DNA from: an uncultured Bacteroidales bacterium
Lineage (GTDB): Bacteria > Bacteroidota > Bacteroidia > Bacteroidales > CAIWKO01
NCBI GenBank assembly: GCA_964574845.1
Contig: CAZNRQ010000002.1
Location: 1-29,119 of the forward strand
Direction: 5' to 3'
Length of the DNA stretch: 29,119 nt
The notes beneath the pieces are model-generated. The model saw only the letters and a program-made list of their open reading frames with translations, searched no databases and was not told where the DNA came from. Positions 10,395 to 24,631 of this stretch are shown here, in pieces. Numbering within the stretch: position 1 is the stretch's first letter; the number at the start of each line of letters is the position of its first letter. Made by a program: the position numbers and the translations under genes.

Positions 10395-10433
10395 AAAATC
10401 CCTTTGACAATAAAGTTAAAGGGATTTTTTTTT
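10395..10433 (+). terminator. Intrinsic terminator closing the nifJ operon
   Basis: AAAATCCCTTTGAC-AATAAA-GTTAAAGGGATTTT stem (one G-U pair) running into T9 (10425-10433). Confidence 0.88.
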
Positions 10434-10597: not shown

Positions 10598-11620
10598 ATG
10601 AGTAAAATTCCTAAAAATATTCCCTTACTGTTGCTTCACCTTAGTATGTGGATTTTCGTTTATATCTTTCCCTTATTATTCGTTGATAATTCCAGGCCTC
10701 ATCCTCCTATGGTCAATGTTTTGCCCGAATTTGTGCTATCGATGGTGCTGTTTTATTTAAATTATTTCTTGCTCATTAAACAGCTGCTTTTTAAGAAGAA
10801 ATACCTCTTATTTTCTGCCATTAGCTTTGCTATACTGTTATTATTTTTAGGATGTGATTATGTTTTTCAAGCATATAATGACCCAAATTTCCTAGGAAAA
10901 GTTCCTTTTGATTTGTTTTTGATTAGGAGTTTATTGTCATTTACGCTTTCTATTGGTGTTTCAGTAGCCATTCGATCGACTATGCGCTTAAAAGAGGAAG
11001 AATCATTGCGTAAAAAAATAGAAAACGAACACCTGAAGTCAGAGATCACTTATTTAAAGTATCAGCTACAGCCACATTTCTTTTTTAATACCTTAAATAA
11101 TATTTATGCACTAATTGATCGTAAGCCCGAACTAGCAAAGGAAGTGTTGCATAATTTGAGTAAATTGCTCCGTTATGTGTTATATCATGCTGAGGATGCA
11201 AAGGTCCCATTGCAAAGCGAAATTTATTTTCTCAAAACCTATATCAATTTGATGCAGATAAGGTTGTCGTCTAGTATTTTTGTAAAATATGAATTTCCGG
11301 ATTTAGAAGCCGAAGAAACGGAAGTAAGGGTGCCCCCATTATTATTTATTACTTTAGTTGAAAATGCATATAAGCATGGCATTGATGCCAATTTACAAGG
11401 AAATATTTTTATTAAAATGGAACTTACGGCCAGCCATGTAATATTTAGTGTAAATAATTCCTGTTCAAAACCAATAGGAGACGATCAGACGGTTTCAGGT
11501 ATAGGTCTTGAAAATCTGCAAAAACGATTGGATATCTTATATAAAGCTAACGAATTTTCGCTTATCCGGAAACAAACTGATAAAGATTATTACTCAGAAT
11601 TGAAAATACCTGCTAACTGA
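10598..11620 (+). CDS. LytS/YehU-family sensor histidine kinase with about 4 N-terminal TM helices
   Basis: H-box LKYQLQPHFFFNTLNNIY, SKLLRY, PPLLFITLVENAYKHG, GIGLENLQKRL. Confidence 0.95.
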   Translation: MSKIPKNIPLLLLHLSMWIFVYIFPLLFVDNSRPHPPMVNVLPEFVLSMVLFYLNYFLLIKQLLFKKKYLLFSAISFAILLLFLGCDYVFQAYNDPNFLGKVPFDLFLIRSLLSFTLSIGVSVAIRSTMRLKEEESLRKKIENEHLKSEITYLKYQLQPHFFFNTLNNIYALIDRKPELAKEVLHNLSKLLRYVLYHAEDAKVPLQSEIYFLKTYINLMQIRLSSSIFVKYEFPDLEAEETEVRVPPLLFITLVENAYKHGIDANLQGNIFIKMELTASHVIFSVNNSCSKPIGDDQTVSGIGLENLQKRLDILYKANEFSLIRKQTDKDYYSELKIPAN

Positions 11621-12339
11621 TGGATAAAATAGATTGCATAATTGCAGATGATGAGCCTTTCGCTTTGGATCTATTGAGGGGATATGTTGAACAAACCCCC
11701 TTCCTGAACCTTATAAAAGCCTGTAATAATGCTTTTGAAGTGATTGAAGTTTTAAATTCCGGATCCAAATGTGTTTTGTTTCTTGATATTCAAATGCCTG
11801 GTATAAGTGGGATGCAACTGGCAAAAATGCTTAACAACCTAACATTGGTTGTTTTTACTACTGCTTATGAAAGTTATGCTGTTGAAGGATATAAGGTTAA
11901 TGCCTTGGATTATTTGTTAAAGCCTTTTAATTATGAAGAATTTCTTTCAGCAGCAGTAAAGGTAAGAAATCAGTTTGAAATAATGGACAAAAAGCCCATA
12001 AGTAATGCTTCGGAAGATTTTATTATTGTAAAAACGGATTATAAGCTTCAACAAATAGCCTTGAATGAGATTACTTATATTGAAGGACTAAAGGATTATA
12101 TAAAGATTTTCAGACAGGACGTCGAAAAACCTGTTATGAGCCTGATGAGCATGAAAGTAATTGTGGAAAAATTACCAGAGGAAGCATTTATGAGAGTGCA
12201 TCGCTCTTTTATTGTAAATCTGAACAAGATTCAAACGGTAGAAAGGAGCAGGATTATTTTTGGAGAAACCAGCATTCCTGTATCAGACAATTATAAGGAA
12301 AAGTTTCACGAATTTATTTCGGGACGGTTCTTACAGTAG
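11620..12339 (+). CDS. LytTR-family response regulator
   Basis: Receiver IADDE, FLDIQMPGISG, FTTAY, DYLLKP. LytTR domain ITYIEGLKDYIKI and FMRVHRSFIVN. TGATG stop/start coupling with the kinase. Confidence 0.96.
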   Translation: MDKIDCIIADDEPFALDLLRGYVEQTPFLNLIKACNNAFEVIEVLNSGSKCVLFLDIQMPGISGMQLAKMLNNLTLVVFTTAYESYAVEGYKVNALDYLLKPFNYEEFLSAAVKVRNQFEIMDKKPISNASEDFIIVKTDYKLQQIALNEITYIEGLKDYIKIFRQDVEKPVMSLMSMKVIVEKLPEEAFMRVHRSFIVNLNKIQTVERSRIIFGETSIPVSDNYKEKFHEFISGRFLQ

Positions 12340-12446: not shown

Positions 12447-14690
12447 ATGTTAAAAAAACTACTCTTATATACAGCCCTTTTCCTGATTCCAATGTTTGGG
12501 GCTTTTTCACAAAATACATCTGATTTTTACGATATCAATTTCATAAGAGAAATTCGTATCACATTTGAGGAACAGAACTGGGATCATGTTTTGGACAGTT
12601 TGTTTATAAATTTTGGTGATGATGCAAAACTGGAAGGAACAGTAAGTATCGACGGTCATATATATCAGCACGCAGGTATCCGTTACAAAGGCTACAGTTC
12701 ATGGGATGTGGATCAGGCAAAAAATCCTTTCAATATTGAATTGGATTATCGCAATACTTATCAGAATTATCAGGGATTTACCAAATTAAAACTAAGTAAT
12801 GTCGTTCGCGATCCTTCCTTTATCCGGGAGGTTCTGTCCTATACTATTCTCAGAAAATATATGCCTGCCTCCCGAGCTAATTTTGCGGATGTATATGTTA
12901 ACGATGTTCACATTGGTCTCTACACTAATGTAGAATCGGTGGATAAATTGTTTGCAGAACGAGAATTTGGATCGGGCAGCAATTCCTTTTTTAAAGGAAG
13001 TCCCGAATTACTAGAATATCCTTATGGCCAAAATGCAAACTTGGCATATACTCATGGCACAGATTCAACAGGATATGTGCCGTATTACAACATGGTCTCC
13101 GACCATGGATGGAATGATTTATTGTACCTAATTGCGGTATTGAACAACGACACCACCAATATTCCCAGTGTTTTGAATGTGGATCGTGCCCTATGGATGC
13201 ACGCTTTTGATTATGCGGTTGTAAATCTGGATAGCTATATAGGCTATTCTCAGAATTACTACATGTATAAAGATGACAACGGCGTTTTTAATGCCATTAT
13301 CTGGGATTTGAATATGTCGTTCGGGAGTTTCAGAAATACCGATGCCACTGCATTAAATCTGAGCATAGCAGCTGCTAAGCAGTTAGATCCTCTGAAAATT
13401 GTGACCTCCACAACCTACTCTCCTCGACCATTAATAAAGAATCTCTTGTCAAATTCCATGTACAGGAAAATGTTTCTGGCACATATGCGCACGATCATTA
13501 ATGAGAATGTCAGGAACGGAGAATACTATTTGATCGGGAAACAAATTCAATCCATAGTTGATACCTATGTACAGGCCGACCCCAACAAGTTTTTTTCGTA
13601 TTCAAATTTTATCAAGAACATTGATACCACTGTAGGACCGACATCCAATCAATATCCAGGCATCAAGGATCTCATGGAAGCCCGCTTGGCCTACCTGGAT
13701 ACCTTTCCCGGATTCAATGGTTATCCCGATATAATTGAAATAGCGCATCAACCGGAATCTCCTTCGAAAGGTCAGGAAATATGGTTTACTGTTAAAGTCA
13801 GCAATGCCAATCATGTTATTTTGGGTTTCAGAAACGACAGCAGGGGGATCTTTCAAAAAATTCAAATGTACGATGATGGCAGCCACAATGACAGTTTGGC
13901 TGGCGATAATATTTATGGAGTTTCAGTAATTCCCACAGGCAAGGTGATGCAATATTTCATGTATGCAGAAAACAATGCATCAGGAATATTCTCTCCTGAA
14001 AGGGCCGAGTATGAGTTTTATTCAATACAGCCTTTAATGGAAAAAGAAGATGTTGTCATCAACGAGTTTGGAGATGGTCGTATCGAACTGTTTAACAACA
14101 CCAATGAAGTGTTGAGTTTGTCTGGAAACTTCCTTTCTGACGATAAGCTTGCACTCTCCAAATGGGCATTTCCCGATACGTCCATATCGGCAAAGAGTTA
14201 TTTGATTGTATATACCAGCGAACAAACAACCTCATTTATGCACACAAATTTCAGCTTGCCTCAGGACGGCGGTGGTCTATATTTTTCCAATACAATTGGC
14301 GGTATTTTGGATTCAGTAATTTGGGAAAATACTGAAAGTGGCAAGTCTATCGGTCGATATCCTAACGGGGTTGGTAGCTTTGTTTATATGCCACGGACAT
14401 TCTCTTTTAGTAACAACATAGGAACCGATGTCGATAATGAATTGCTTGTTTTTCCTAATCCTTCCAATGGAATCGTTACTCTAGAATTTGGTAAAACTCA
14501 AGGTGTTTTCTATGTAGAAATAGTGAATATATCTGGAGAGTCCATGTGGTATGAGAGTTTTGATGAAATCTCAGGGTCCGTGAATGTTATTAGTAAATCT
14601 TTTGATCTTTCAACGCTTAGCAAAGGAGTGTACGTGTTTCGCCTGATTTGTGATAATAAAATAACTACTAAAAAAATAATAATAATTTAA
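12447..14690 (+). CDS. CotH-family atypical kinase with lamin-tail-like domain and T9SS C-terminal domain
   Basis: Signal peptide. GIRYKGYSS, KLKLSN-DPSFIREVLSY, GLYTNVESVD, NLDSY-NYYMY, WDLNMSFG. MYDDGSHNDSLAGDNIYG motif, VVINEF-IELFN (LTD-like), and CTD VFPNPSNG-KGVYVFRL-TKKIIII. Confidence 0.9.
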   Translation: MLKKLLLYTALFLIPMFGAFSQNTSDFYDINFIREIRITFEEQNWDHVLDSLFINFGDDAKLEGTVSIDGHIYQHAGIRYKGYSSWDVDQAKNPFNIELDYRNTYQNYQGFTKLKLSNVVRDPSFIREVLSYTILRKYMPASRANFADVYVNDVHIGLYTNVESVDKLFAEREFGSGSNSFFKGSPELLEYPYGQNANLAYTHGTDSTGYVPYYNMVSDHGWNDLLYLIAVLNNDTTNIPSVLNVDRALWMHAFDYAVVNLDSYIGYSQNYYMYKDDNGVFNAIIWDLNMSFGSFRNTDATALNLSIAAAKQLDPLKIVTSTTYSPRPLIKNLLSNSMYRKMFLAHMRTIINENVRNGEYYLIGKQIQSIVDTYVQADPNKFFSYSNFIKNIDTTVGPTSNQYPGIKDLMEARLAYLDTFPGFNGYPDIIEIAHQPESPSKGQEIWFTVKVSNANHVILGFRNDSRGIFQKIQMYDDGSHNDSLAGDNIYGVSVIPTGKVMQYFMYAENNASGIFSPERAEYEFYSIQPLMEKEDVVINEFGDGRIELFNNTNEVLSLSGNFLSDDKLALSKWAFPDTSISAKSYLIVYTSEQTTSFMHTNFSLPQDGGGLYFSNTIGGILDSVIWENTESGKSIGRYPNGVGSFVYMPRTFSFSNNIGTDVDNELLVFPNPSNGIVTLEFGKTQGVFYVEIVNISGESMWYESFDEISGSVNVISKSFDLSTLSKGVYVFRLICDNKITTKKIIII

Positions 14691-14700
14691 ATTTACGACG

Positions 14701-16413
14701 ATGGTAAAAAAGCTTTCTCTAATTTTAGTTTTGGTTTTTGTGTTTACAAAAATAAATGCCCAACAACAGGAAACGTATACATTCGCTGTAGGTGGCACTT
14801 ATGCATATTTGTTTGACACAGCTGCAACAACTTCTTCCCAGTATTATGCCCGGTGGGCAGTAAGTTCAACATCTTACTCTGCACATTTTTTAAAAGACAC
14901 CATCTATCAAAGCACTGGCTCTGGTTCGGGTGGTGGTTCCTGGGGTTCTATAAAGAAATGGGTTTGTTCCAGCCCAACTGTGGCAACTAATACCTGGACC
15001 TATACGGTAACCGGTGGGCACCACGATATTTGCCCACTTCCCAACGGTAATGTGTTGATTATTGTGCATGATTCTAAAACTGCAGCAAATGTATCAGCAG
15101 TTGGAGGAACATATAGTGGGACTGTTCAATCTGAGAAAATACAGGAAATACGTCAGACAGGGCCGACAACTGGTCAAGTTGTTTGGGAATGGAAACTTTG
15201 GGATCATTTATGTCAAAGTACTAATCCTGCCATAACGACCACCTATGTAACATCTGTTGCCGCCAATCCACAGTTGATGAATGTTAATTATAATATGACG
15301 TCTGATTGGATTCACATGAATGGGATCGATTATAATGCACAATTGGATCAGATAGTAGTAAGTTCACACTTTATGAATGAAATATGGGTCATTGACCATA
15401 GTACAACAACTACCCAGGCTGCAACACATAGTGGAGGTAATGGTGGAAGAGGAGGCGATTTTCTTTATCGTTGGGGTAATCCTGCTGCTTACGGATGCAC
15501 TGCAGGAGGAAATGGTATAACTCTTAATACTATTCATGATGCACGTTGGGTATCATCAACCAATGCAAAATACCCCAATTATATCAGCATGTATCATAAC
15601 AATGGGGGGGGTACGGTTCAGGCAGTATTGTGTCAAGCACCACACAATGGATATAATTATACCTATACTGCAGGTTCAGTAATTGCTCCTACCACTTGCA
15701 CAAAACCAACAATTCCATCAATAACTGGAGTGGCAGATCAAGGAAGTATTCAAGTGGTAGAAAATGGCAATATATTAATTACCAAACCAAACAATACATT
15801 TTATGAGTGTAATGGAACCGGAACAACCTACCAAACCTTAGCAGTTGGATCGAACCATGTAGATAGACTAAGAAAATGCAAAGTATATGGTCCTTATACA
15901 ACTGCCTCGTCCTCAACGTCAACTATATGTGCCAATAATCAGATAACATTAAGTTCAACAGCGGTTTCACCGTTACAAAGCAGCCCTACTTTCACTTATT
16001 CATGGTCTTCTGTCCCTGCAGGTTTTACCTCTTCATCACAAAACCCTACTGTTACACCTAATACTGCCGGCAATTACACATATACAGTAACGGTTACAAC
16101 CGCTGGCTGCACCAGTACTTCTTCGGTGAACGTGACAGTTAATGCCTGTACAGATGTGGAAGAAGCTGAAGCAAATCAGTCAGAATTGGTTCTTTTCCCT
16201 AATCCATCCACTGGCATGGTTCAGCTGAACGAAGAATTTATAACAAATAATACTTACGACATTATTGTTTGCAATTCAATTGGAAAAGTCGTGTTCGAAG
16301 GTAAAAATGTCAAAAACATTGACCTCTCAGAACAAGGGGATGGGATTTTTTATGTGTCTGTCAAAACAGATTCGAATGCTGTAATCAATAAAAAGGTAAT
16401 TTTGATTAAATAA
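14701..16413 (+). CDS. Arylsulfotransferase (ASST)-like beta-propeller with PKD-like Ig domain and T9SS C-terminal domain
   Basis: HHDICPLPNGNVL, VVWEWKLWDH, DWIHMNGIDY, EIWVIDHS, GDFLYRWGNP, IHDARW. Ig segment FTYSWS-SQNPTVTP-GNYTYTVTVT and CTD LFPNPSTG-KKVILIK. Confidence 0.82.
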   Translation: MVKKLSLILVLVFVFTKINAQQQETYTFAVGGTYAYLFDTAATTSSQYYARWAVSSTSYSAHFLKDTIYQSTGSGSGGGSWGSIKKWVCSSPTVATNTWTYTVTGGHHDICPLPNGNVLIIVHDSKTAANVSAVGGTYSGTVQSEKIQEIRQTGPTTGQVVWEWKLWDHLCQSTNPAITTTYVTSVAANPQLMNVNYNMTSDWIHMNGIDYNAQLDQIVVSSHFMNEIWVIDHSTTTTQAATHSGGNGGRGGDFLYRWGNPAAYGCTAGGNGITLNTIHDARWVSSTNAKYPNYISMYHNNGGGTVQAVLCQAPHNGYNYTYTAGSVIAPTTCTKPTIPSITGVADQGSIQVVENGNILITKPNNTFYECNGTGTTYQTLAVGSNHVDRLRKCKVYGPYTTASSSTSTICANNQITLSSTAVSPLQSSPTFTYSWSSVPAGFTSSSQNPTVTPNTAGNYTYTVTVTTAGCTSTSSVNVTVNACTDVEEAEANQSELVLFPNPSTGMVQLNEEFITNNTYDIIVCNSIGKVVFEGKNVKNIDLSEQGDGIFYVSVKTDSNAVINKKVILIK

Positions 16414-16427
16414 ATAAAACAAAAACC

Positions 16428-17678
16428 ATGAAAAAGATAATAGCTGCAGTAATTGGCACACTTCTGTTGTGTTCGATAAATTTAGTTAATGCACAGTTTT
16501 TAACCACCCATTATTATACTGGTAATTGCGCTATTGCCAGTGATTATGTCATGGGAGGAGTAGCGGTCGACACCAATAATAACAAATGGTTCGGTACCGA
16601 TCAGGGAGTTGTGAAATACAACGGCAGCACCTGGGCCACTTATACCACTGCAGATGGACTTCCTGTTAATATCATTTCTTGCATTGCAGTTGATAAAAAC
16701 AACAATATATGGATTGGGACAGATGGTGATGGTGTTGCAAAATTTAATGGAAGCACCTGGACCAAATATACTACTGCAGATGGGTTGTGCGATAATGGCA
16801 TTCGTTATGTTGCAGGCGATATCAATGGCGATGTCTGGTTCGGTTCGGGGGGGGCTGGTGTATCCAAACTGAGTGGAGCCACTTGGACTACCTATACTAC
16901 CGGCCTTCCTATGAACGGAGGAATTTATGCGGCTGTAAACTTCATAACAGTGGATAACTCCGGAACCAAATGGTTTGGCACTGATGCCGGTGTGGCTAAA
17001 TTTAATGGTACTACCTGGACAGTAATCGATCAGTCAGTTGAAGACAGTCTGGTGGATAACGGTATTACATCGATTGCAATCGATGCTGCTAATAACAAGT
17101 GGATTGGAACTTTAAGTGGAATTACCAAGTTGAACAGTTCAGATGTCTGGGTGAAGAACTACAGACCTATTGATGGTATGTATAACAATGGCTTAAGAGA
17201 TCTGGACATTGATGTCAATGGGAAACTGTGGATGGGATTATATACCGATTATAACAACAATGGTGGTATTACACGTTTTGATGGTACCAGCTGGACCTCA
17301 CAGCAATTCGACTTCCCAGATTCAGTTTCTGCTGATTGGATCTTTCGTCTAGCGGTCGACAAAAACAACGATGTTTGGGTGGCTATGGATTATGGGGTAA
17401 TTAAAATTGATCATACAAGTTCCATAAGTGAGAATCAGCAAAGTGGTGCTCTTAATGTATTCCCCAACCCGGTTTCGGACAGAATTACACTAAATTTGGA
17501 TATCAATAGTTGCCAGAAAGATCAGTTGGTTCAAATATACAATGCCGTGCAGAAAGTTAAAGAGGTGAATATGCCTGCCTTCATGGCTTCAACAACCATT
17601 CCGGTGGATGATTTGCCTTGTGGTTTATATTTTGTAAGAGTTGGAAATTTAACTAATAAAATAATTATCAGCAGGTAA
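16428..17678 (+). CDS. Seven-bladed two-component-regulator-type (Reg_prop) propeller with T9SS C-terminal domain
   Basis: Seven blades centred on KWFGT, IWIGT, VWFGS, KWFGT, KWIGT, LWMGL, VWVAM, with repeated NGSTW-YTTADGL. CTD VFPNPVSD-GLYFVRV-KIIISR. Confidence 0.88.
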   Translation: MKKIIAAVIGTLLLCSINLVNAQFLTTHYYTGNCAIASDYVMGGVAVDTNNNKWFGTDQGVVKYNGSTWATYTTADGLPVNIISCIAVDKNNNIWIGTDGDGVAKFNGSTWTKYTTADGLCDNGIRYVAGDINGDVWFGSGGAGVSKLSGATWTTYTTGLPMNGGIYAAVNFITVDNSGTKWFGTDAGVAKFNGTTWTVIDQSVEDSLVDNGITSIAIDAANNKWIGTLSGITKLNSSDVWVKNYRPIDGMYNNGLRDLDIDVNGKLWMGLYTDYNNNGGITRFDGTSWTSQQFDFPDSVSADWIFRLAVDKNNDVWVAMDYGVIKIDHTSSISENQQSGALNVFPNPVSDRITLNLDINSCQKDQLVQIYNAVQKVKEVNMPAFMASTTIPVDDLPCGLYFVRVGNLTNKIIISR

Positions 17679-17689
17679 ATCATCTGTAA

Positions 17690-18826
17690 ATGAAAAGCCC
17701 GTCGATCAGAAGAAGCACTTTCCTTATTGTCTTTATAATTAATATCAATTTAGTTTTTGGGCAGAATTTTGCCATTATTTCTGATATTCACGGGGCAACT
17801 CCATCGACTTTGAGTGTTTGCAATCTTGTTAAAAACTGGTCACCGGACTTTATCATTACATGTGGCGATAATAATTACGCTTCTGTCAATGCTATCGATA
17901 CACAAGTAGGTCAGTTTTATCATGAATTTATTTCTCCTTATCTAGGTGTGTTTGGAGTAGGAGATACCATTAATCGTTTTTTTTCAGGGTTGGGCAATCA
18001 TGATGTAGAAAGTGGCGGAATAAGTTCTTATCTCCCGTATGTGAATTTGCCCGGGAATGAAAGATATTACGATTTTGTCAGAGGGTATGTGCATTTCTTT
18101 TGCATTAATAGTAATATTGATGAGCCCGATGGTGTTGCAGATACTTCAATTCAGGCACAATGGCTTCATGCTCATCTGTCGGCCTCCACTTCTTTGTATA
18201 ATATTGTTTATTTTCATCATCCTCCTTATTCGTCAGGACTGGTGCATGGAAGTACCACTTATATGCAATGGCCCTTTATACAATGGGGTGCCAGTGCTGT
18301 TTTTTCCGGACATGATCATATATATGAACGACTGAATATTGGGGGGTTACCCTATTTTATTTGTGGTACGGGTGGCGGCCCTCTATATTCTGTTAATCCA
18401 ATACCCGGCAGCGAATTCATTAATAATACGAATCATGGAGCCATGTGGATTGTAGCAAATGCAGATAGCATGGTCCTAAAGTTTATAAATACGGGTGACA
18501 CCCTTATTGATGAGTATTATATAGTTCCAGGCATTCCGGCTCATGTTGAAAATCAATTCTATTCTGAGCCATTTAGTGTGAATATATACCCCAATCCGGC
18601 CTTACAAAATGTTACAGTTAGTTTCGCTAATTATGAGCAGGATTTTGTGATTACAATTACTGATGTTTTTGGTAGAATTCTCTTTCATAAAGATTATACC
18701 AATAATAATTGTAAATTTGAAACTGTAATACAAAATATTGATGTAAAGGCATTATCTTGTGGAAATTATTTTATTAACGTTCATTGTCAGAATAAAACTG
18801 TTACCCGAAAACTTGTAATTAATTAA
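17690..18826 (+). CDS. Calcineurin-like metallophosphoesterase (purple acid phosphatase-like) with T9SS C-terminal domain
   Basis: All five metal-binding blocks: SDIHG, GDNNY, LGNHD, FHHPPYS, SGHDHIYER. CTD IYPNPA-GNYFINV-RKLVIN. Confidence 0.92.
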   Translation: MKSPSIRRSTFLIVFIININLVFGQNFAIISDIHGATPSTLSVCNLVKNWSPDFIITCGDNNYASVNAIDTQVGQFYHEFISPYLGVFGVGDTINRFFSGLGNHDVESGGISSYLPYVNLPGNERYYDFVRGYVHFFCINSNIDEPDGVADTSIQAQWLHAHLSASTSLYNIVYFHHPPYSSGLVHGSTTYMQWPFIQWGASAVFSGHDHIYERLNIGGLPYFICGTGGGPLYSVNPIPGSEFINNTNHGAMWIVANADSMVLKFINTGDTLIDEYYIVPGIPAHVENQFYSEPFSVNIYPNPALQNVTVSFANYEQDFVITITDVFGRILFHKDYTNNNCKFETVIQNIDVKALSCGNYFINVHCQNKTVTRKLVIN

Positions 18827-18859
18827 ATAAATATATAAATGTTAAACAACCCTAATAAA

Positions 18860-19261
18860 ATGAAAAAACTGTTACTAATCGTTTTACCGCTTTTTATAGT
18901 GGTTTTGATCTCATCCTGTTCAAAGGATCCCGGTGTGGGAGGAAATGGTTCCATCCATGGCAAGGTGTATGCAAAATATTATAACAAATACTTTACTGTT
19001 TTTTTAGGTGAGGGATATGCTGCCGACAAGGAAGTTTATATAATTTACGGTGATGATCTGGACTATGGAGATAAGGTGAACACCAACTATGACGGCAGTT
19101 ACGAATTCAAATATTTGAGGAAGGGTAAATACAAAGTGGTGACCTATTCAAAAGATTCCACACTTACCGTTCCATCAGGAACCATCGCTGTAATTCAAGA
19201 AGGAGAGATATCGAGTAACAAGGAAAGCGTTGAACTGCCAGATTTGAAAATTTTTGACTAA
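18860..19261 (+). CDS. Lipoprotein with a probable prealbumin/carboxypeptidase-regulatory-like beta-sandwich
   Basis: MKKLLLIVLPLFIVVLISS-C lipobox (ATG 18860 preferred over 18839). GSIHGKVY and TNYDGSYEFKYLRKGKYKVV. Confidence 0.8.
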   Translation: MKKLLLIVLPLFIVVLISSCSKDPGVGGNGSIHGKVYAKYYNKYFTVFLGEGYAADKEVYIIYGDDLDYGDKVNTNYDGSYEFKYLRKGKYKVVTYSKDSTLTVPSGTIAVIQEGEISSNKESVELPDLKIFD

Positions 19262-19279: not shown

Positions 19280-19774
19280 ATGAGAACCATGAATATACTG
19301 ACTTTGGCAGTGCTCTGCTTCGCACTTAGCAACGCCATGGGACAGGGAAAAAAAGAAATCAGGGACAATAAAATTGCAACCGAAACATCTTATGTGACAG
19401 CAACAGAGAATGGTAAGGAAGTTACCTACAAGGATTCCTACACTGTTTATGATAAGAATGGCTGTGTTACTGAACAGACCGAGTATAATAAAGAAGGTGC
19501 AATTAAAAGAAAAGAGACTAATAAATACAATGCCAATAAGGACAAGATAGAGGAGGTGGTATACGACGGTAAGGATAAGACCACTCAAAAAACAACATAT
19601 TTTTATAATTCGGAGTATCAAAAAATAGGAGAGATAGAGTATGATGGTGTAGGTCAAATCAAAAAACAGAGCCTTACTACCTATAATCCCAATGGAATGA
19701 AGGCCGAAAAGAAAACCTATGATGCCAATAAAAAACTGATCTCTACGAAGAAATTCACCTATACTACTAAATAG
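19280..19774 (+). CDS. Secreted Lys/Thr/Tyr-rich protein with YD/RHS-like beta-hairpin repeats
   Basis: Signal peptide ending NAMG-Q. Recurrent Y[DN]xxG/K turns about every 11-13 aa (YDKNG, YNKEG, YNANK, YDGKD, YNSEY, YDGVG, YNPNG, YDANK). Confidence 0.8.
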   Translation: MRTMNILTLAVLCFALSNAMGQGKKEIRDNKIATETSYVTATENGKEVTYKDSYTVYDKNGCVTEQTEYNKEGAIKRKETNKYNANKDKIEEVVYDGKDKTTQKTTYFYNSEYQKIGEIEYDGVGQIKKQSLTTYNPNGMKAEKKTYDANKKLISTKKFTYTTK

Positions 19775-19781
19775 TCCCTCA

Positions 19782-20540
19782 TTGGTGGATAACCTTAACG
19801 AAATATTGCAAAAATTTTCACCTATTTCATTAACTGAAATGGATAGCGTTAAACTGATGAACAGGTCGGATACAAAGTTTATTTTCCGTCGCGAACTTCT
19901 AACGACTATATTAGAACAAGTTAGAGACGAATATTTCGTTCTTGAGGTAGAAGGTGTGAGAAATAGCCGTTACGAAACTCTTTATTATGACACAGAAGAT
20001 TTTAAGCTTTTTCATCAGCACCGCTGCGATAAAGCTTCCCGCGAAAAGATTCGTTTAAGGACTTATCTTGAATCTGATCTGCATTTCTTTGAGATTAAGA
20101 AAAAAACAAATAAGGGTAAGACTATAAAGGCCCGTATACAAAGAAGCGAACAGACAGCACAGTTTTCTGAACGCACCCACGATTTTTTACAAAATAAATC
20201 AGATACGGATGGAAGTGAACTAGTGCCCAAATTGTGGACGAAAAACTCAAGAATTACTCTAGTTAACAAGAATCTTCCTGAAAGGCTAACCATTGACACT
20301 GATCTCTTATTTTGTAATATGGAGAAAGAAGAATCCCTATCAGAATTAGTAATTGCCGAACTTAAACAGGAAAAAAAACAACGATCGGCATTTACGGATA
20401 TCATGCGTTGTAAAAGAATACCTGAAATTTCCATAAGCAAATATTGTTTTGGGGTTATATTTCTGTATGAGCATATCCGCATGAACAATTTTAAACCAAA
20501 GCTATTAATTTTAAATAAATTACGACATGAGCCTCTTTAA
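19782..20540 (+). CDS. VTC (polyphosphate polymerase) domain protein, CYTH/TTM fold
   Basis: LMNRSDTKFI, YETLYYDT, REKIRLRTY, FFEIKKK, RITLV, ERLTIDTDL, AELKQ, ISKYC. No signal peptide or TM segment. Start is uncertain (TTG 19782 or GTG 19785). Confidence 0.9.
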   Translation: MVDNLNEILQKFSPISLTEMDSVKLMNRSDTKFIFRRELLTTILEQVRDEYFVLEVEGVRNSRYETLYYDTEDFKLFHQHRCDKASREKIRLRTYLESDLHFFEIKKKTNKGKTIKARIQRSEQTAQFSERTHDFLQNKSDTDGSELVPKLWTKNSRITLVNKNLPERLTIDTDLLFCNMEKEESLSELVIAELKQEKKQRSAFTDIMRCKRIPEISISKYCFGVIFLYEHIRMNNFKPKLLILNKLRHEPL

Positions 20541-21333
20541 AAGTATTTTACTTGTTATCATTGTAATTCTGTTCAGTATGCCCGCTTCCGTAGCGATAGC
20601 ACAAACAGTGACCCCCGATAATAACACCGAAACCGTCCAGGTAACCGAAATAACTAAAGCAGAAAAGAAAAAAGATAAAAAGAAAGATGAAGAAGGGGAT
20701 AAAGAAAGTAAATTGCAGATAGGTACTACATTCTATTTAAATTTTCTGATAAATCTCGCCACTGTATTTATTTTGATAGTTTTTATCTATTATCCTAACT
20801 ACAAGAATAAGGATGTATTCTTCACGTATTTTCTTTTCAATATTGCAATTTTTCTGCTAACTTACTTGATGAATCAGATCAAAATATCAATGGGGGCAGC
20901 TTTCGGACTATTTGCCGTTTTCTCAATGCTTCGATACCGAACCGAGGGTATATCAATCAAAGATATGACCTACCTGTTTATTGTAATTGCAGTAGGCTTG
21001 GTTAGTGCCATACAGCTTGAGTTTTATAATCTGGGTATTATTAATGGAATTATTGTTATTTCCACCTTTCTACTTGATGGGAATATTATTATGAAACGTG
21101 AGTTTTCGAAACGCATCCAGTATGACAATATCGACTTTATCAAGCCAGAGAATTATGATAAATTACTGGAAGATCTTAATAATAGGACCGGGTTAAAGAT
21201 CAGGAGAATATCCATTTTGAAAATAGACTTTTTACGTGATCTTGCCGTAATAGATGTCTTTTATTATAATGGTAAAAAGGACAAGAATTCGGATGTTTCA
21301 CGTGTTGATTCATTGATCAGTGCAACCGATTAA
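20527..21333 (+). CDS. DUF4956-family inner-membrane protein with an N-terminal signal-like extension
   Basis: FGLFAVFSMLRYRT, IKDMTYLFIVIAVGL, about 5 hydrophobic segments, and a C-terminal soluble domain (LLEDLNNRTGLKI). Overlaps the VTC gene by 14 nt. Confidence 0.88.
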   Translation: MSLFKSILLVIIVILFSMPASVAIAQTVTPDNNTETVQVTEITKAEKKKDKKKDEEGDKESKLQIGTTFYLNFLINLATVFILIVFIYYPNYKNKDVFFTYFLFNIAIFLLTYLMNQIKISMGAAFGLFAVFSMLRYRTEGISIKDMTYLFIVIAVGLVSAIQLEFYNLGIINGIIVISTFLLDGNIIMKREFSKRIQYDNIDFIKPENYDKLLEDLNNRTGLKIRRISILKIDFLRDLAVIDVFYYNGKKDKNSDVSRVDSLISATD

Positions 21334-21343
21334 TTTAACAGTT

Positions 21344-22021
21344 ATGCTCCGTAACTTTAATAAAATAGTAATTTCAGCTTTTCTGTTCTTGACGGCTTCT
21401 GCGGCCTTTGCCCAGTGGAACGATGCCCATTTGTGGACCAGCATTAGCATAGAAAAGAAGATAATAAAGAACTTTTCGGTTACGGTTTCGGAGGAACTTC
21501 GATTCTCTGAAAACATTACCGAACTGGGGACCTTTTTTACGGATATAGGATTGAACTATAAAATAAACAAGCATTGGCGCGTTTCGGGAGATTACCGGTT
21601 TACAAACAAGATCCGTCTGGACAATTCGTACAGTAAACGCCATCGTTATTATTTCGATCTGTCGTTTCGTAAGAAGTTCTACCAGTTTTCTATCCTGGCA
21701 CGTACACGTATCCAGTCGCAGTATGCCGATGTGAACAGCAGCGAAACGGGTCATTTGGCCGAATATTATTCGCGTAACAAGCTAACGCTGAAATATAATA
21801 TTACCTCAAAAATAGCGCCCTATCTGTCAGCAGAAGCGTTTATACCGCTGAACAATCCCGAAGTAAAGGGCATTGATAATATGCGTTACAGTTTGGGCCT
21901 GGAATGGGAGTTTCTTAAGAACTCTACACTTGATGTGTTTTATATGATACAACAACAATATCAGGCCAAAGACCCTGAACGTGATTTTGTGACGGGTATT
22001 GGCTATAGTTATTCGTTCTAA
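21344..22021 (+). CDS. DUF2490-family outer-membrane beta-barrel
   Basis: Signal peptide ending AAFA-Q, amphipathic strands (EELRF, DIGLNYKI, RNKLTLKYNI, PYLSAEAF, LDVFYMIQ) and C-terminal YSYSF. ATG 21344 preferred, GTG 21320 possible. Confidence 0.82.
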   Translation: MLRNFNKIVISAFLFLTASAAFAQWNDAHLWTSISIEKKIIKNFSVTVSEELRFSENITELGTFFTDIGLNYKINKHWRVSGDYRFTNKIRLDNSYSKRHRYYFDLSFRKKFYQFSILARTRIQSQYADVNSSETGHLAEYYSRNKLTLKYNITSKIAPYLSAEAFIPLNNPEVKGIDNMRYSLGLEWEFLKNSTLDVFYMIQQQYQAKDPERDFVTGIGYSYSF

Positions 22022-22078: not shown

Positions 22079-22141
22079 TTTTTTATAAAAAATTAAATTT
22101 CTCTTGGAATATCCCTCCAAGAGTATTAATTTTATAAAAAA
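22079..22141. repeat. Imperfect long inverted repeat upstream of the beta-propeller gene
   Basis: Inner arms CTCTTGGA/TCCAAGAG (22101-22108, 22116-22123). Outer arms TTTTTTATAAAA/TTTTATAAAAAA (22079-22090, 22130-22141). Confidence 0.5.
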
Positions 22142-22151
22142 AACTAAAACG

Positions 22152-22892
22152 ATGAAAAAAACCTTGCTGTTTTTAAGCGCAATTATTGTGCTTTTGGCTT
22201 TTAATACACAGGTAAAAGCCCAGATTCTCATTCCAAAGATCACTTTTGAGGAAACACCCCTTACGCATAATGTTCACATCGCCTCTGATGGTGAATATTA
22301 TTATACCTGTAATGGCGGTCGCTCCAACAAAGGCCAGATTCAGAAGTTTTCGTTCAACGGGCGCTTACTCGATACTTACGAAATGTTGCTGGATATGCGT
22401 TCGATCATGTATAATCAGAAAGAAAAATGTTTCTATGTATGCACTTACGAACGGGATATTTATAAAATAACCAGTCTTGAACATGGAAGTTACGAAAAGG
22501 TGAAGAGCGAAATGTACGAGAATGAGCAGGCCAATCTGGCCATGAGTGCCGATGGGAAGTATCTTTACTACTTTACGGACGGTACTCTCAAAATCTATAA
22601 GTTTCCTTCGGGTAAAGTGTCGAAAACCATAAAGGATCTCGATTGTGGTAAGGAATTCACCACGGGTAGTGGAGCTGTTGCCTGCGACGGAAAGTATTTC
22701 TATACTTTTAACGGCGATTATAAAATGATCTATGCCTACGATATGAAGGGCAAAAAAGTGAAATCATTCGAGATTGAGCAGGGAACCTACGGTTTCTCTC
22801 TTTCATGTGCCAATGGTTTGGTTTTTGTATCCGATGACGGCAACTATGAAGTTGGCAAATGGTATGGCTACGATCTGTGGTCAAAACAGTAA
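22152..22892 (+). CDS. Secreted hypothetical protein, probable beta-propeller
   Basis: Signal peptide MKKTLLFLSAIIVLLAFNTQVKA-Q (ATG 22152 preferred over TTG 22104). Blade-like repeats IASDGEYYYT, AMSADGKYLYY, VACDGKYFYT. No T9SS CTD. Confidence 0.82.
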   Translation: MKKTLLFLSAIIVLLAFNTQVKAQILIPKITFEETPLTHNVHIASDGEYYYTCNGGRSNKGQIQKFSFNGRLLDTYEMLLDMRSIMYNQKEKCFYVCTYERDIYKITSLEHGSYEKVKSEMYENEQANLAMSADGKYLYYFTDGTLKIYKFPSGKVSKTIKDLDCGKEFTTGSGAVACDGKYFYTFNGDYKMIYAYDMKGKKVKSFEIEQGTYGFSLSCANGLVFVSDDGNYEVGKWYGYDLWSKQ

Positions 22893-22908
22893 AATGTATT
22901 GAGTTTCG

Positions 22909-22948
22909 AAAGGGCAGGATGGTGTTGGAATCATTCTGCCCTTTTTTT
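22909..22948 (+). terminator. Intrinsic terminator
   Basis: AAAGGGCAGGATG-(loop)-CATTCTGCCCTTT stem (one G-U pair) running into T7 (22942-22948). Confidence 0.85.
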
Positions 22949-23353: not shown

Positions 23354-24631
23354 CTATCTCATCTCCTCCACACTTTCCCTGATCACTTCCTCCACGCTTT
23401 TCTGCCGTTTCCGAGCCTCCGAAAGATGTTGGCTCAGTCCGGGGTCCTGGTCTATCACATACCGGGTTTTGATGTAATCGGGGTTTGGCGTTGCATTGGG
23501 GAAATAAATATTGTAAAGCGCATCGGTAAAACCCCAGAAAGCCCTATAAGTATTTAGCTCGGTAATCATCACAAGTATCACCTCTTGTTTTTCTACCCTC
23601 TCCTGAAGGTTCAGCACCTTGGGAATGTCCTGCATCGTCCAGATATTGGGCCATATCCCGCGGAAATAATACCAATATTCCTGATCACGGAACAAATTAT
23701 CGATGATTCCATTGCTTTGCAGGCCCCAATAATAGCTGTCGCCTACAGTAAGCAATTTGGGTTTGGTCATGGCGCTGCGGTCGTTGTAGCCCACCTGCGG
23801 ATAGCACAACGAAATGTGCTTCACATCGAACAGCAGGTTCATGGTGGCTTCAATATCGAAATCCTCGTCATGGGCTTTTTCAGTGATCTTATAACCCCTC
23901 CATATCATTTCAGGCATATCTATGTGCCTCACACCTTCGATAAACTTCGATAGGGTGTCTCCTGCCCTGAACATGCCGTAAGTGGTCCAGTGCACTCCAT
24001 AATTGCTGTAGACTGGATAACGGACGGTGTCTTTCATCCCCACAAACCAGGAACACAGATCGAGATATTGTAAGCCGATTTCCTTACTGCGTGCTACTAG
24101 ATACTTCATATTGCTGGGCTTCTTATCATAAGGATGATAACGATCGGGGATCAATTCGGGATAATAAGACGCTTTTCCCGGTTCATACACAATGATGAGG
24201 TCAATATTCTTTGCTTTTTTCAAAGTATCCTGAACCATCTTGGTGCGACGCAACACCTCGTTGAGGTATGTTTCTCCCACAAAATTGGCCCCGGTATAAT
24301 CCAGGATATATCCTTCCTCATAAAGACAATTGTTTTTGCCAATAATAACATTATGAGCATCAGTTTTTTTATAGAGCCAATAGTTAAGCTGGTTGTTGGT
24401 GCGTATCAATATTTCGCGCAGACCGAAACTGTCTTCCACCGAGCGGTTGTATTTCTTTTGGAAAGACTCGTCTGACCATGTTTTCCAGTTCAGCGTATCG
24501 GGTCGTTTATGGGTCTCGAAGAAACCATTTAAGGGTTTTACCCGAAACAGATGCAACTGTTGTTGCAACAAGGGCATAAACAGCATCAGCATGATGATTA
24601 CAAACAGTGATATTTTGATTGTCTTCTTCAT
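23354..24631 (-). CDS. AlgJ/AlgX-like SGNH polysaccharide O-acetyltransferase, membrane-anchored
   Basis: N-terminal TM helix, VIIGKNNCLYEEGY, YEPGKASYYPE, GVHW preceding the GDSY serine block (the permuted order seen in AlgJ/AlgX). Abuts an MBOAT gene. Confidence 0.8.
   Translation of the reverse strand: MKKTIKISLFVIIMLMLFMPLLQQQLHLFRVKPLNGFFETHKRPDTLNWKTWSDESFQKKYNRSVEDSFGLREILIRTNNQLNYWLYKKTDAHNVIIGKNNCLYEEGYILDYTGANFVGETYLNEVLRRTKMVQDTLKKAKNIDLIIVYEPGKASYYPELIPDRYHPYDKKPSNMKYLVARSKEIGLQYLDLCSWFVGMKDTVRYPVYSNYGVHWTTYGMFRAGDTLSKFIEGVRHIDMPEMIWRGYKITEKAHDEDFDIEATMNLLFDVKHISLCYPQVGYNDRSAMTKPKLLTVGDSYYWGLQSNGIIDNLFRDQEYWYYFRGIWPNIWTMQDIPKVLNLQERVEKQEVILVMITELNTYRAFWGFTDALYNIYFPNATPNPDYIKTRYVIDQDPGLSQHLSEARKRQKSVEEVIRESVEEMR

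Follow-up and report, generated by a model that had tools for sequence, protein, structure and literature searches.

A Vtc4-like enzyme, an MgtC-like membrane protein and a predicted outer-membrane barrel in a Bacteroidales gene cassette: a candidate split analogue of the yeast VTC complex

Introduction

The stretch of DNA analysed here, 29,119 nucleotides of contig CAZNRQ010000002.1 (assembly GCA_964574845.1) from an uncultured Bacteroidales bacterium and referred to below as the window, contains three consecutive genes that encode members of the VTC, DUF4956 and DUF2490 families. The original prediction, made from the window alone, regarded them as a split, two-membrane analogue of the yeast VTC complex, which makes polyphosphate (polyP) and translocates it. 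What had been said about the genes themselves, namely that a VTC protein, a DUF4956 protein and a barrel are encoded in the same direction with a 14-nt overlap between the first two, was borne out by the open reading frames (ORFs), the Pfam assignments and the junctions: read directly, the DUF4956 ATG lies at 20527 and the VTC stop codon (TAA) at 20538-20540. The arrangement is real and conserved, far beyond chance. Within it, DUF4956 is a near-obligate, translationally coupled partner of VTC in nearly every lineage that bears a VTC protein, and the latter is, judging from its sequence and structural model, a minimal Vtc4-type triphosphate-tunnel enzyme that keeps the polymerase residues and for which catalysis is predicted. 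The earlier interpretation, a predicted VTC-type polymerase served by a non-homologous and split membrane apparatus, is plausible and is better founded through the comparative genomics below. A full polyP export chain, running from VTC through DUF4956 and the periplasm to DUF2490, is the best reading of these genes and is held tentatively, at a probability of about 0.3.

A Vtc4-Like Tunnel Enzyme

The VTC protein matched the PF09359 profile with 102.8 bits (cut-off 23) over positions 1-234 of 235, and its AlphaFold2 (AF2) model, with a predicted local distance difference test (pLDDT) value of 91, displays a beta-tunnel with a basic lining. The protein is soluble, with no transmembrane (TM) segment, and a Pfam scan found no SPX domain in it. 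In a Foldseek comparison of the model with the PDB, ranks 1-13 were all occupied by yeast Vtc4, Vtc3 and Vtc2 (E 7e-12 to 6e-10), the generic cyclases and triphosphatases of the CYTH superfamily ranking below them, from E 4e-8. A profile built from 37 prokaryotic VTC sequences (Bacteroidota, Chloroflexota and Archaea) retrieved Vtc4 (E 1.6e-22), Vtc2 (1.4e-16) and Vtc3 (2e-11) from the PDB, with no other matches; single-sequence phmmer searches of the same database with this VTC protein and with one archaeal VTC protein gave no match.

The residues of Vtc4 holding triphosphate and Mn2+ have been identified as K200, R264, R266, K281, R361, K458, S457, Y359 and E426, and K458 is the sole member of this set missing from the inactive Vtc2 and Vtc3 (bioRxiv 10.1101/2023.01.27.525886). 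When the bacterial protein was aligned to full-length Vtc4 (8i6v_E) by means of HMMER, its residues K32, R91, R93, K106, R157, E193, S219 and K220 fell on Vtc4 K200, R264, R266, K281, R361, E426, S457 and K458, respectively, and further pairs were formed by R28/R196, K116/K294, R168/R373 and K195/K428. Eight of the nine named catalytic residues are therefore kept, including the lysine that separates active Vtc4 from Vtc2 and Vtc3. Across the 37 sequences of the profile, all mapped catalytic residues are invariant except S219 (34 of 37) and position 155, which corresponds to Vtc4 Tyr359. The earlier description of a soluble VTC domain with a basic tunnel and no TM part thus agrees with both the AF2 model and the residue map.

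Pairing with DUF4956 across Prokaryotes

In about 300 loci, drawn from Bacteroidota, Clostridia, Actinobacteria, Chloroflexota, Gammaproteobacteria and Archaea, the gene after VTC is DUF4956. The order is found in 80 of the 81 Bacteroidota loci related to the window, in 78 of 80 loci from Clostridia and Actinobacteria (with CotH as the next gene in about 62), in 13 of 19 from Chloroflexota and in about 20 of 24 from Halobacteriota. An even sample of 301 Bacteroidota genomes contained VTC in 47, all of which (47/47) also contained DUF4956; the two genes were immediate neighbours in 48 of 51 matches, and in two more they lay no further than 3 kb apart. In addition, both families matched the same three of 14 control genomes, those of Bacteroides thetaiotaomicron, Corynebacterium glutamicum and Methanosarcina acetivorans. 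The converse does not hold, since 43 of the 301 Bacteroidota genomes have a weaker-scoring DUF4956 and no VTC. The module extends to a further gene: CotH flanks VTC-DUF4956 in Clostridia, Chloroflexota, Archaea and Gammaproteobacteria, and is the third member of a pan-prokaryotic VTC-DUF4956-CotH module.

A few VTC genes from Chloroflexota and Archaea (our loci L087, L089, L091, L112 and L123) are orphans, in the sense that no DUF4956 gene adjoins them. In L089, the VTC gene is followed on the same strand by a different protein of 483 aa with six TM segments.

The DUF4956 Protein and Its Probable MgtC-Like Fold

The DUF4956 protein matched PF16316 with 171.7 bits over the whole profile (positions 1-169 of 169). 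Its AF2 model, of moderate quality (pLDDT 68), shows an N-terminal signal-like helix, a disordered Lys-rich tail (about residues 44-62), five TM helices (67-184) and a C-terminal, ACT-like domain of beta-alpha-beta-beta order (192-247). From the positive-inside rule and the cleavable-looking signal (VAIA-Q) we infer a periplasmic location for the Lys-rich tail and a cytoplasmic one for the C-terminal domain. A motif, FGLF..FS.LRYRT, comprising R136 and R138, is conserved in 116 bacterial and archaeal DUF4956 sequences, and in the pLDDT-68 model these two arginines sit at the predicted cytoplasmic end of TM3, where, in an oligomer, they would be candidates for a pore ring. In the yeast complex, K24 and R31 of Vtc1 form the basic ring or rings at the cytoplasmic mouth of the polyP channel.

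No match to DUF4956 was obtained by Foldseek or VIA-align among solved structures, the VTC membrane domain included, and only generic helical bundles with Z below 9 were returned. Beyond the DUF4956 family, the closest predicted structures were those of SapB/MgtC/YhiD proteins (Foldseek E 3e-4, TM-score 0.40-0.45, full length), and MgtC/SapB clusters ranked next after the DUF4956 clusters in a search of the AlphaFold Database (AFDB). An hhalign comparison with a purpose-built MgtC alignment was weak and colinear (E 5.5e-4, probability 30%), and the Pfam MgtC model (PF02308) did not match DUF4956 even at E up to 10. On these models, DUF4956 probably shares an MgtC/SapB-like fold: as in MgtC/SapB/YhiD proteins, five predicted TM helices would be combined with a small alpha/beta, ACT-like cytoplasmic domain, although the LRYRT motif is not theirs and is specific to DUF4956. 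To our knowledge, MgtC does not pair with any triphosphate tunnel metalloenzyme (TTM). A 1:1 complex prediction of VTC with residues 60-268 of DUF4956 scored 0.00, which speaks neither for nor against binding.

Within the Lys-rich tail, a tract of KKKDKKK, acidic and Ser residues (window 20656-20712, DUF4956 residues 44-62) is found in 22 of 64 related DUF4956 proteins. This predicted periplasmic tract resembles the PASK-type motifs that bind polyP in eukaryotes.

DUF2490 and the Outer-Membrane Slot

The DUF2490 protein matched PF10677 with 106.3 bits, besides a weak OMP_b-brl match, and, read from the ATG at 21344, starts with the signal sequence MLRNFNKIVISAFLFLTASAAFA-Q. In an atlas feature search, every match was itself a DUF2490 protein. 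The family (TCDB 1.B.81, putative porin) has a median isoelectric point (pI) of 9.5, and it is from the family that a barrel is predicted here. DUF2490 lies at most 10 kb from VTC in 61 of the 81 related loci, mostly directly after DUF4956. Among 119 loci selected by the DUF4956 motif, it comes directly after DUF4956 in 52, including a Gemmatimonas locus (confirmed by Pfam) and a Kapaibacterium locus.

The slot is not always filled by DUF2490. In nine Gammaproteobacteria (four Marinobacter, a Pseudomonadales metagenome-assembled genome, Oleispira, Litorirhabdus, a Colwelliaceae strain and Hahella), the end of DUF4956 is overlapped by a gene for a porin of the OprO/OprP type, and in the five of the nine that were tested, the Pfam Porin_O_P family (PF07396) was matched with E from 1e-34 to 3e-46. 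The slot after DUF4956 is, therefore, filled by unrelated barrels in different phyla, a case of non-orthologous replacement. DUF2490 is much smaller than OprP/OprO (about 200 residues when mature) and has no sequence match to Porin_O_P. The occupation of one slot by unrelated barrels, one of them from a family selective for phosphate or polyP, speaks for a functional role of the barrel and for a phosphate species as what passes through it. In these Gammaproteobacteria the genes run CotH - VTC - DUF4956 - Porin_O_P (L280, L284, L286, L288, L322, L333, L337, L343 and L351).

The claim that an outer-membrane barrel follows the VTC-DUF4956 pair stands insofar as this is regular in diderms, and has to be qualified insofar as DUF2490 belongs to a broad porin family whose members mostly lie apart from VTC and which has been recruited to the module in some lineages only. 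Eight copies unlinked to VTC were sampled: three lie between a carbonic anhydrase and a SulP transporter, and two beside TonB-dependent receptors. The first of these contexts suggests that DUF2490 is elsewhere an anion (bicarbonate or sulfate?) porin, and the contexts together suggest a small porin family pairing with different inner-membrane systems. In the Bacteroidota loci L157, L158 and L160, the carbonic anhydrase is of the beta class and the anion transporter is of the SulP/STAS type.

The Envelope Cassette and Its Surroundings

Two further genes precede VTC in the cassette. The 140-aa lipoprotein, a small beta-sandwich, is present in 61 of the 81 related loci, and in rearranged cassettes (L038, L039, L056, L062, L067, L070 and L075) it is encoded directly before DUF2490. 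The 164-aa secreted protein, present in 63 of 81, is always encoded directly upstream of VTC in this lineage; its family has medians of 17% Lys and pI 9.1, and its structure matches in the atlas are YD-repeat clusters (TM-score 0.79). As predicted from their sequences, the products of the five cassette genes would together cover cytoplasm, inner membrane, periplasm and outer membrane. Upstream of them lie four genes for cargo of the type IX secretion system (T9SS), encoding a CotH kinase with a T9SS tail, an ASST-like enzyme, a beta-propeller protein and a metallophosphoesterase. L006, L012, L026, L029, L037, L079 and L080 likewise have ASST-like and propeller genes upstream. Both PPK1 and PPK2 are encoded elsewhere in the same genome, so ordinary polyP metabolism is already covered and VTC would represent an additional system.

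Polyphosphate Export and Its Alternatives

The export of polyP could proceed as follows. VTC would dock on the cytoplasmic face of a DUF4956 oligomer, making contact in the neighbourhood of its invariant LRYRT loop and ACT-like domain, and would polymerise the gamma-phosphate of ATP into polyP, the growing chain being handed through DUF4956 into the periplasm. There, it would meet lysine-rich elements, i.e., the DUF4956 tail and the secreted 164-aa protein, before leaving by way of the basic DUF2490 barrel, itself paired with the lipoprotein. Once outside, polyP would be used by the CotH kinase and phosphoesterase secreted through the T9SS, or at the cell surface. This proposal draws its support from the Vtc4-specific kinship of the enzyme, the near-obligate pairing with DUF4956, the envelope cassette, the replacement of the barrel by Porin_O_P and the exported CotH. 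The DUF2490 paralogues next to SulP anion transporters, the VTC-less DUF4956 paralogue encoded before an HlyD-type adaptor and the presence of PPK1 and PPK2 in the genome are further points in its favour. Extended to all lineages, the proposal would depict an ancient prokaryotic VTC machine in which polymerisation at the membrane, export through an MgtC fold and a phosphate-type outer-membrane barrel provide CotH kinases and phosphoesterases, exported to where there is no ATP, with an energy-rich phosphoryl polymer, a generalisation that we regard as doubtful.

A number of observations weigh against export. Since DUF4956 has no match to the VTC membrane domain and an MgtC-like fold instead, it can at best be an analogue of the yeast channel, not a homologue. 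The comparison with yeast made by the original prediction is supported for a soluble Vtc4-like enzyme, a coupled membrane partner and a following barrel, and not for kinship of DUF4956 with the yeast membrane domain. The five TM helices of DUF4956 cannot make a pore without oligomerisation, and we know of no channel activity or pore in the MgtC/SapB-like fold, whose known roles are regulatory. Natural VTC-DUF4956 fusions, sought as had been proposed, were absent from about 320 loci and from the best 150 of 18,996 representatives, in all of which the end of the VTC domain lies close to that of the protein. As porins are passive, the barrel does not give the direction of transport. Regarding the enzyme, the position of Vtc4 Tyr359 is taken here by Asn155 (Tyr in 32 and Phe in four of the 37 profile sequences), and position 30 is acidic (Asp or Glu) in 35 of 37, where Vtc4 has Thr; by its sequence, this acidic position is what is left of the ExExK motif found in TTM enzymes that hydrolyse their substrates. 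We found no paper in which a prokaryotic VTC protein was assayed. In Streptococcus intermedius, deletion of the VTC or the DUF4956 homologue left aggregation and Pel production in place, a small decrease in aggregation being seen in the DUF4956 mutant only, and the authors suggested that polyP stays in the cytoplasm (bioRxiv 10.1101/2024.04.20.589940).

Indeed, the cassette might serve a membrane-tethered synthesis of cytoplasmic polyP, in which DUF4956 would be an MgtC-like anchor or regulator whose ACT-like domain senses a metabolite and the outer-membrane barrel would import phosphate. The MgtC/SapB-like architecture of DUF4956 fits such a role, and OprP/OprO-type porins are classically uptake channels, which counts in the same direction. 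Besides the suggestion of the S. intermedius authors just mentioned, their preprint cites MgtC as a regulator with ties to the homeostasis of ATP and phosphate (bioRxiv 10.1101/2024.04.20.589940). However, PPK1 and PPK2 already supply cytoplasmic polyP, and this explanation leaves unaccounted for both the exported CotH kinase that is constantly linked with the module, in monoderms and archaea as well as diderms, and the presence of a secreted Lys-rich protein, a lipoprotein and a predicted periplasmic Lys tract. We consider it possible, if on the unlikely side. The residues at positions 30 and 155 lend themselves to a different explanation, in which VTC would not be a polymerase and would act as a triphosphatase, as a cyclase or in the transfer of phosphate or pyrophosphate to, e.g., a lipid- or glycan-linked acceptor, with DUF4956 transporting or sensing the product for envelope enzymes. 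The TTM/CYTH superfamily is functionally diverse, comprising cyclases and triphosphatases, and the module is tied to polysaccharide (Pel) loci in Gram-positives. Yet the Vtc4-specific Ser-Lys pair (S457/K458) and the basic tunnel residues are invariant or nearly so, and the family is nearer to Vtc4 than to any hydrolase or cyclase, in both sequence and fold; a function other than polymerisation is, in our opinion, unlikely.

The third matter is whether DUF2490 belongs to the system at all. VTC-DUF4956 would be the functional unit and the barrel a general anion porin that happens to be a neighbour, given that 103 of the 301 Bacteroidota genomes contain DUF2490, frequently as multiple copies and for the most part at a distance from VTC, in unrelated contexts such as those described above, and that many VTC-positive Bacteroidota genomes lack it. 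These distributions also count against export by way of DUF2490. Mere neighbourhood is, nonetheless, difficult to reconcile with the proximity of DUF2490 to VTC in the related loci and its place directly after DUF4956 in the motif-selected sample, in Gemmatimonas and in Kapaibacterium, as well as with the retention of the lipoprotein partner in rearranged cassettes and the use of another barrel family in the gammaproteobacterial slot. It was, therefore, judged very improbable, and export of polyP through DUF4956 and DUF2490 is retained as the preferred, if tentative, reading.

Relation to Known Systems and Previous Work

The closest counterpart is the yeast VTC complex (Vtc4/Vtc3 or Vtc2/Vtc1; PDB 3G3Q, 7YTJ and 8I6V), with which the bacterial system shares the basic and acidic residues of the active site, including the Vtc4-only lysine, and the association of catalysis, here predicted, with a membrane component. 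In yeast, however, an SPX domain and a three-helix TM domain of the DUF202 type are covalently joined to the enzyme and a pentameric basic pore is formed, whereas the 252-aa bacterial protein has none of these, nor the long insertions of Vtc4. Its membrane partner is encoded by a separate gene and has an unrelated, probably MgtC-like fold, and there are two membranes to cross. PPK1 and PPK2 share with VTC the presumed product, polyP from a nucleoside triphosphate, and their folds are unrelated to that of VTC. OprP/OprO (PF07396) are likewise outer-membrane barrels, and occupy the slot after DUF4956 that DUF2490 occupies here.

The same families, in the same order, were previously described at Gram-positive Pel loci as an association of cotH, a 'polyphosphate polymerase' and DUF4956 (PMC7112168 = bioRxiv 10.1101/768473; bioRxiv 10.1101/2024.04.20.589940), and a Vtc4-like fold with its catalytic residues, as well as an MgtC-like partner, had been pointed out in the S. 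intermedius preprint (bioRxiv 10.1101/2024.04.20.589940). The present sampling extends the association to the 78 of 80 Clostridia and Actinobacteria loci. The Pel loci are from monoderms, without outer-membrane barrel, lipoprotein or periplasmic Lys-rich protein, while in the window CotH is T9SS cargo; in these papers the enzyme is treated as cytoplasmic and DUF4956 is not proposed as a conduit. VTC genes are also paired with a membrane protein, beside CotH, in the NELoc-2 locus of Clostridium perfringens, and BT3498-99 of B. thetaiotaomicron correspond to DUF4956 and DUF2490. In a 2026 paper, VTC4 is still listed as eukaryotic (PMC13318637). Our literature search found no paper proposing DUF4956 or DUF2490 as a polyP conduit. 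New in the present work are the residue-level map onto Vtc4, the evidence for an MgtC-like fold, the pairing counted across six lineages, the five-gene envelope cassette of Bacteroidota and the Porin_O_P replacement in Gammaproteobacteria.

Prokaryotic polyP synthesis continues to be credited to PPK1 and PPK2, yet the VTC family counts about 19,000 representative clusters (18,996). That a VTC-type enzyme is tied to a membrane partner and an exported kinase, joined in diderms by a porin of the phosphate type, suggests a phosphate-polymer chemistry extending to the cell envelope, and export of polyP could answer how secreted CotH kinases obtain a phosphoryl donor. If true, this would be the first biochemical role for DUF4956, for DUF2490 and for the MgtC-type membrane fold.

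Layout of the Locus and Minor Observations

The features of the transcription unit and its surroundings are collected in Table 1.

Table 1. Coordinates of the VTC cassette and neighbouring features in the window.
Feature	Position	Strand	Details
Terminator-like hairpin before the kinase gene	10395-10428		counterpart of the 22908-22945 hairpin
LytS-type histidine kinase and LytTR response regulator	10598-12339	+	Pfam His_kinase E 3.8e-24; Response_reg + LytTR
CotH kinase with lamin-tail domain, T9SS-secreted	12447-14690	+	Pfam CotH E 1.2e-40; Por_Secre_tail E 6e-11
ASST-like T9SS cargo	14701-16413	+	Pfam/TIGRFAM match; Por_Secre_tail
Beta-propeller T9SS cargo	16428-17678	+	Pfam/TIGRFAM match; Por_Secre_tail
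Calcineurin-like metallophosphoesterase, T9SS cargo	17690-18826	+	Pfam/TIGRFAM match; Por_Secre_tail
140-aa lipoprotein	18839-19261	+	lipobox ...SSC; weak SdrD_B / CarboxypepD_reg matches
164-aa Lys-rich, YD/RHS-repeat-like secreted beta-sheet protein	19280-19774	+	signal peptide; atlas structure matches
VTC gene	19782-20540	+	252 aa; TTG start; Pfam PF09359 E 2.8e-29
DUF4956 gene	20527-21333	+	268 aa; Pfam PF16316 E 1.5e-50
DUF2490 gene	21344 (ATG)-22021	+	Pfam PF10677 E 2e-30; alternative GTG start 21320
262-aa ORF	22104-22892	+	between DUF2490 and the strong terminator
Terminator-like hairpin, end of unit	22908-22945	+	16-bp stem, then T run
AlgX-type SGNH domain protein (polysaccharide acetyltransferase-like)	23354-24631	-	convergent, downstream

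The unit is headed by the LytS/LytTR pair, which recurs beside the cassette in several related loci, and no hairpin comparable to the two listed in Table 1 was found between 12447 and 22021. Matches to sigma-70 promoters were no better than those of shuffled controls and were not used as evidence. The TTG start of VTC is supported by the conservation of the N-terminal 19 residues in homologues of 251 aa. With regard to DUF2490, the ATG at 21344, 10 nt after the DUF4956 stop, is the more likely start; from the alternative GTG at 21320, a 14-nt overlap would result instead. Downstream, the 262-aa ORF was matched by neither Pfam nor NCBIfam, 80 related loci contain no relative of it, and a hairpin at 22101-22123 overlaps the start of the ORF. 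The AlgX-type gene recalls the association of the module with exopolysaccharide loci seen in Gram-positives.

In the course of the search for fusions, a 787-aa open frame in genome G224 was discarded as a high-GC artefact with no extra domain. The AFDB cluster A0A7J5BR56 (623 aa) has DUF4956 at 366-589 and an N-terminal part of 365 residues, and is a possible, unconfirmed fusion.

DUF4956 also occurs apart from VTC. In the one planctomycete locus sampled (L354), the neighbour of VTC-DUF4956 is a bPH/GYF protein and no HlyD-TolC pair. In three Bacteroidota genera, by comparison, a VTC-less paralogue is followed immediately by genes for an HlyD-type periplasmic adaptor and a 410-aa secreted protein, the whole cassette (L367:1348-5584, L368 and L369) consisting of DUF6580 (five TM segments), DUF4956, the HlyD-like adaptor, the familyless 410-aa protein and a short-chain dehydrogenase. 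The DUF4956-HlyD layout is typical of envelope-spanning exporters, and the adjacent DUF6580 could be the membrane component there. Proteins with PPDK_N, the ATP-binding domain of pyruvate phosphate dikinase, adjoin DUF4956 in L353:5297-8000 (Bryobacterales), L370:4772-6667 and L371:4617-6494; one of the three, with EF-hands, comes directly after VTC-DUF4956 and the other two are convergent with a VTC-less DUF4956. Finally, in L364:4263-7371 and L366:4313-7658, DUF4956, strongly matched and again without VTC, precedes an uncharacterised protein of 341-356 aa, after which L364 encodes a purple-acid-phosphatase-like metallophosphoesterase and L366 a corresponding ORF of 529 aa.

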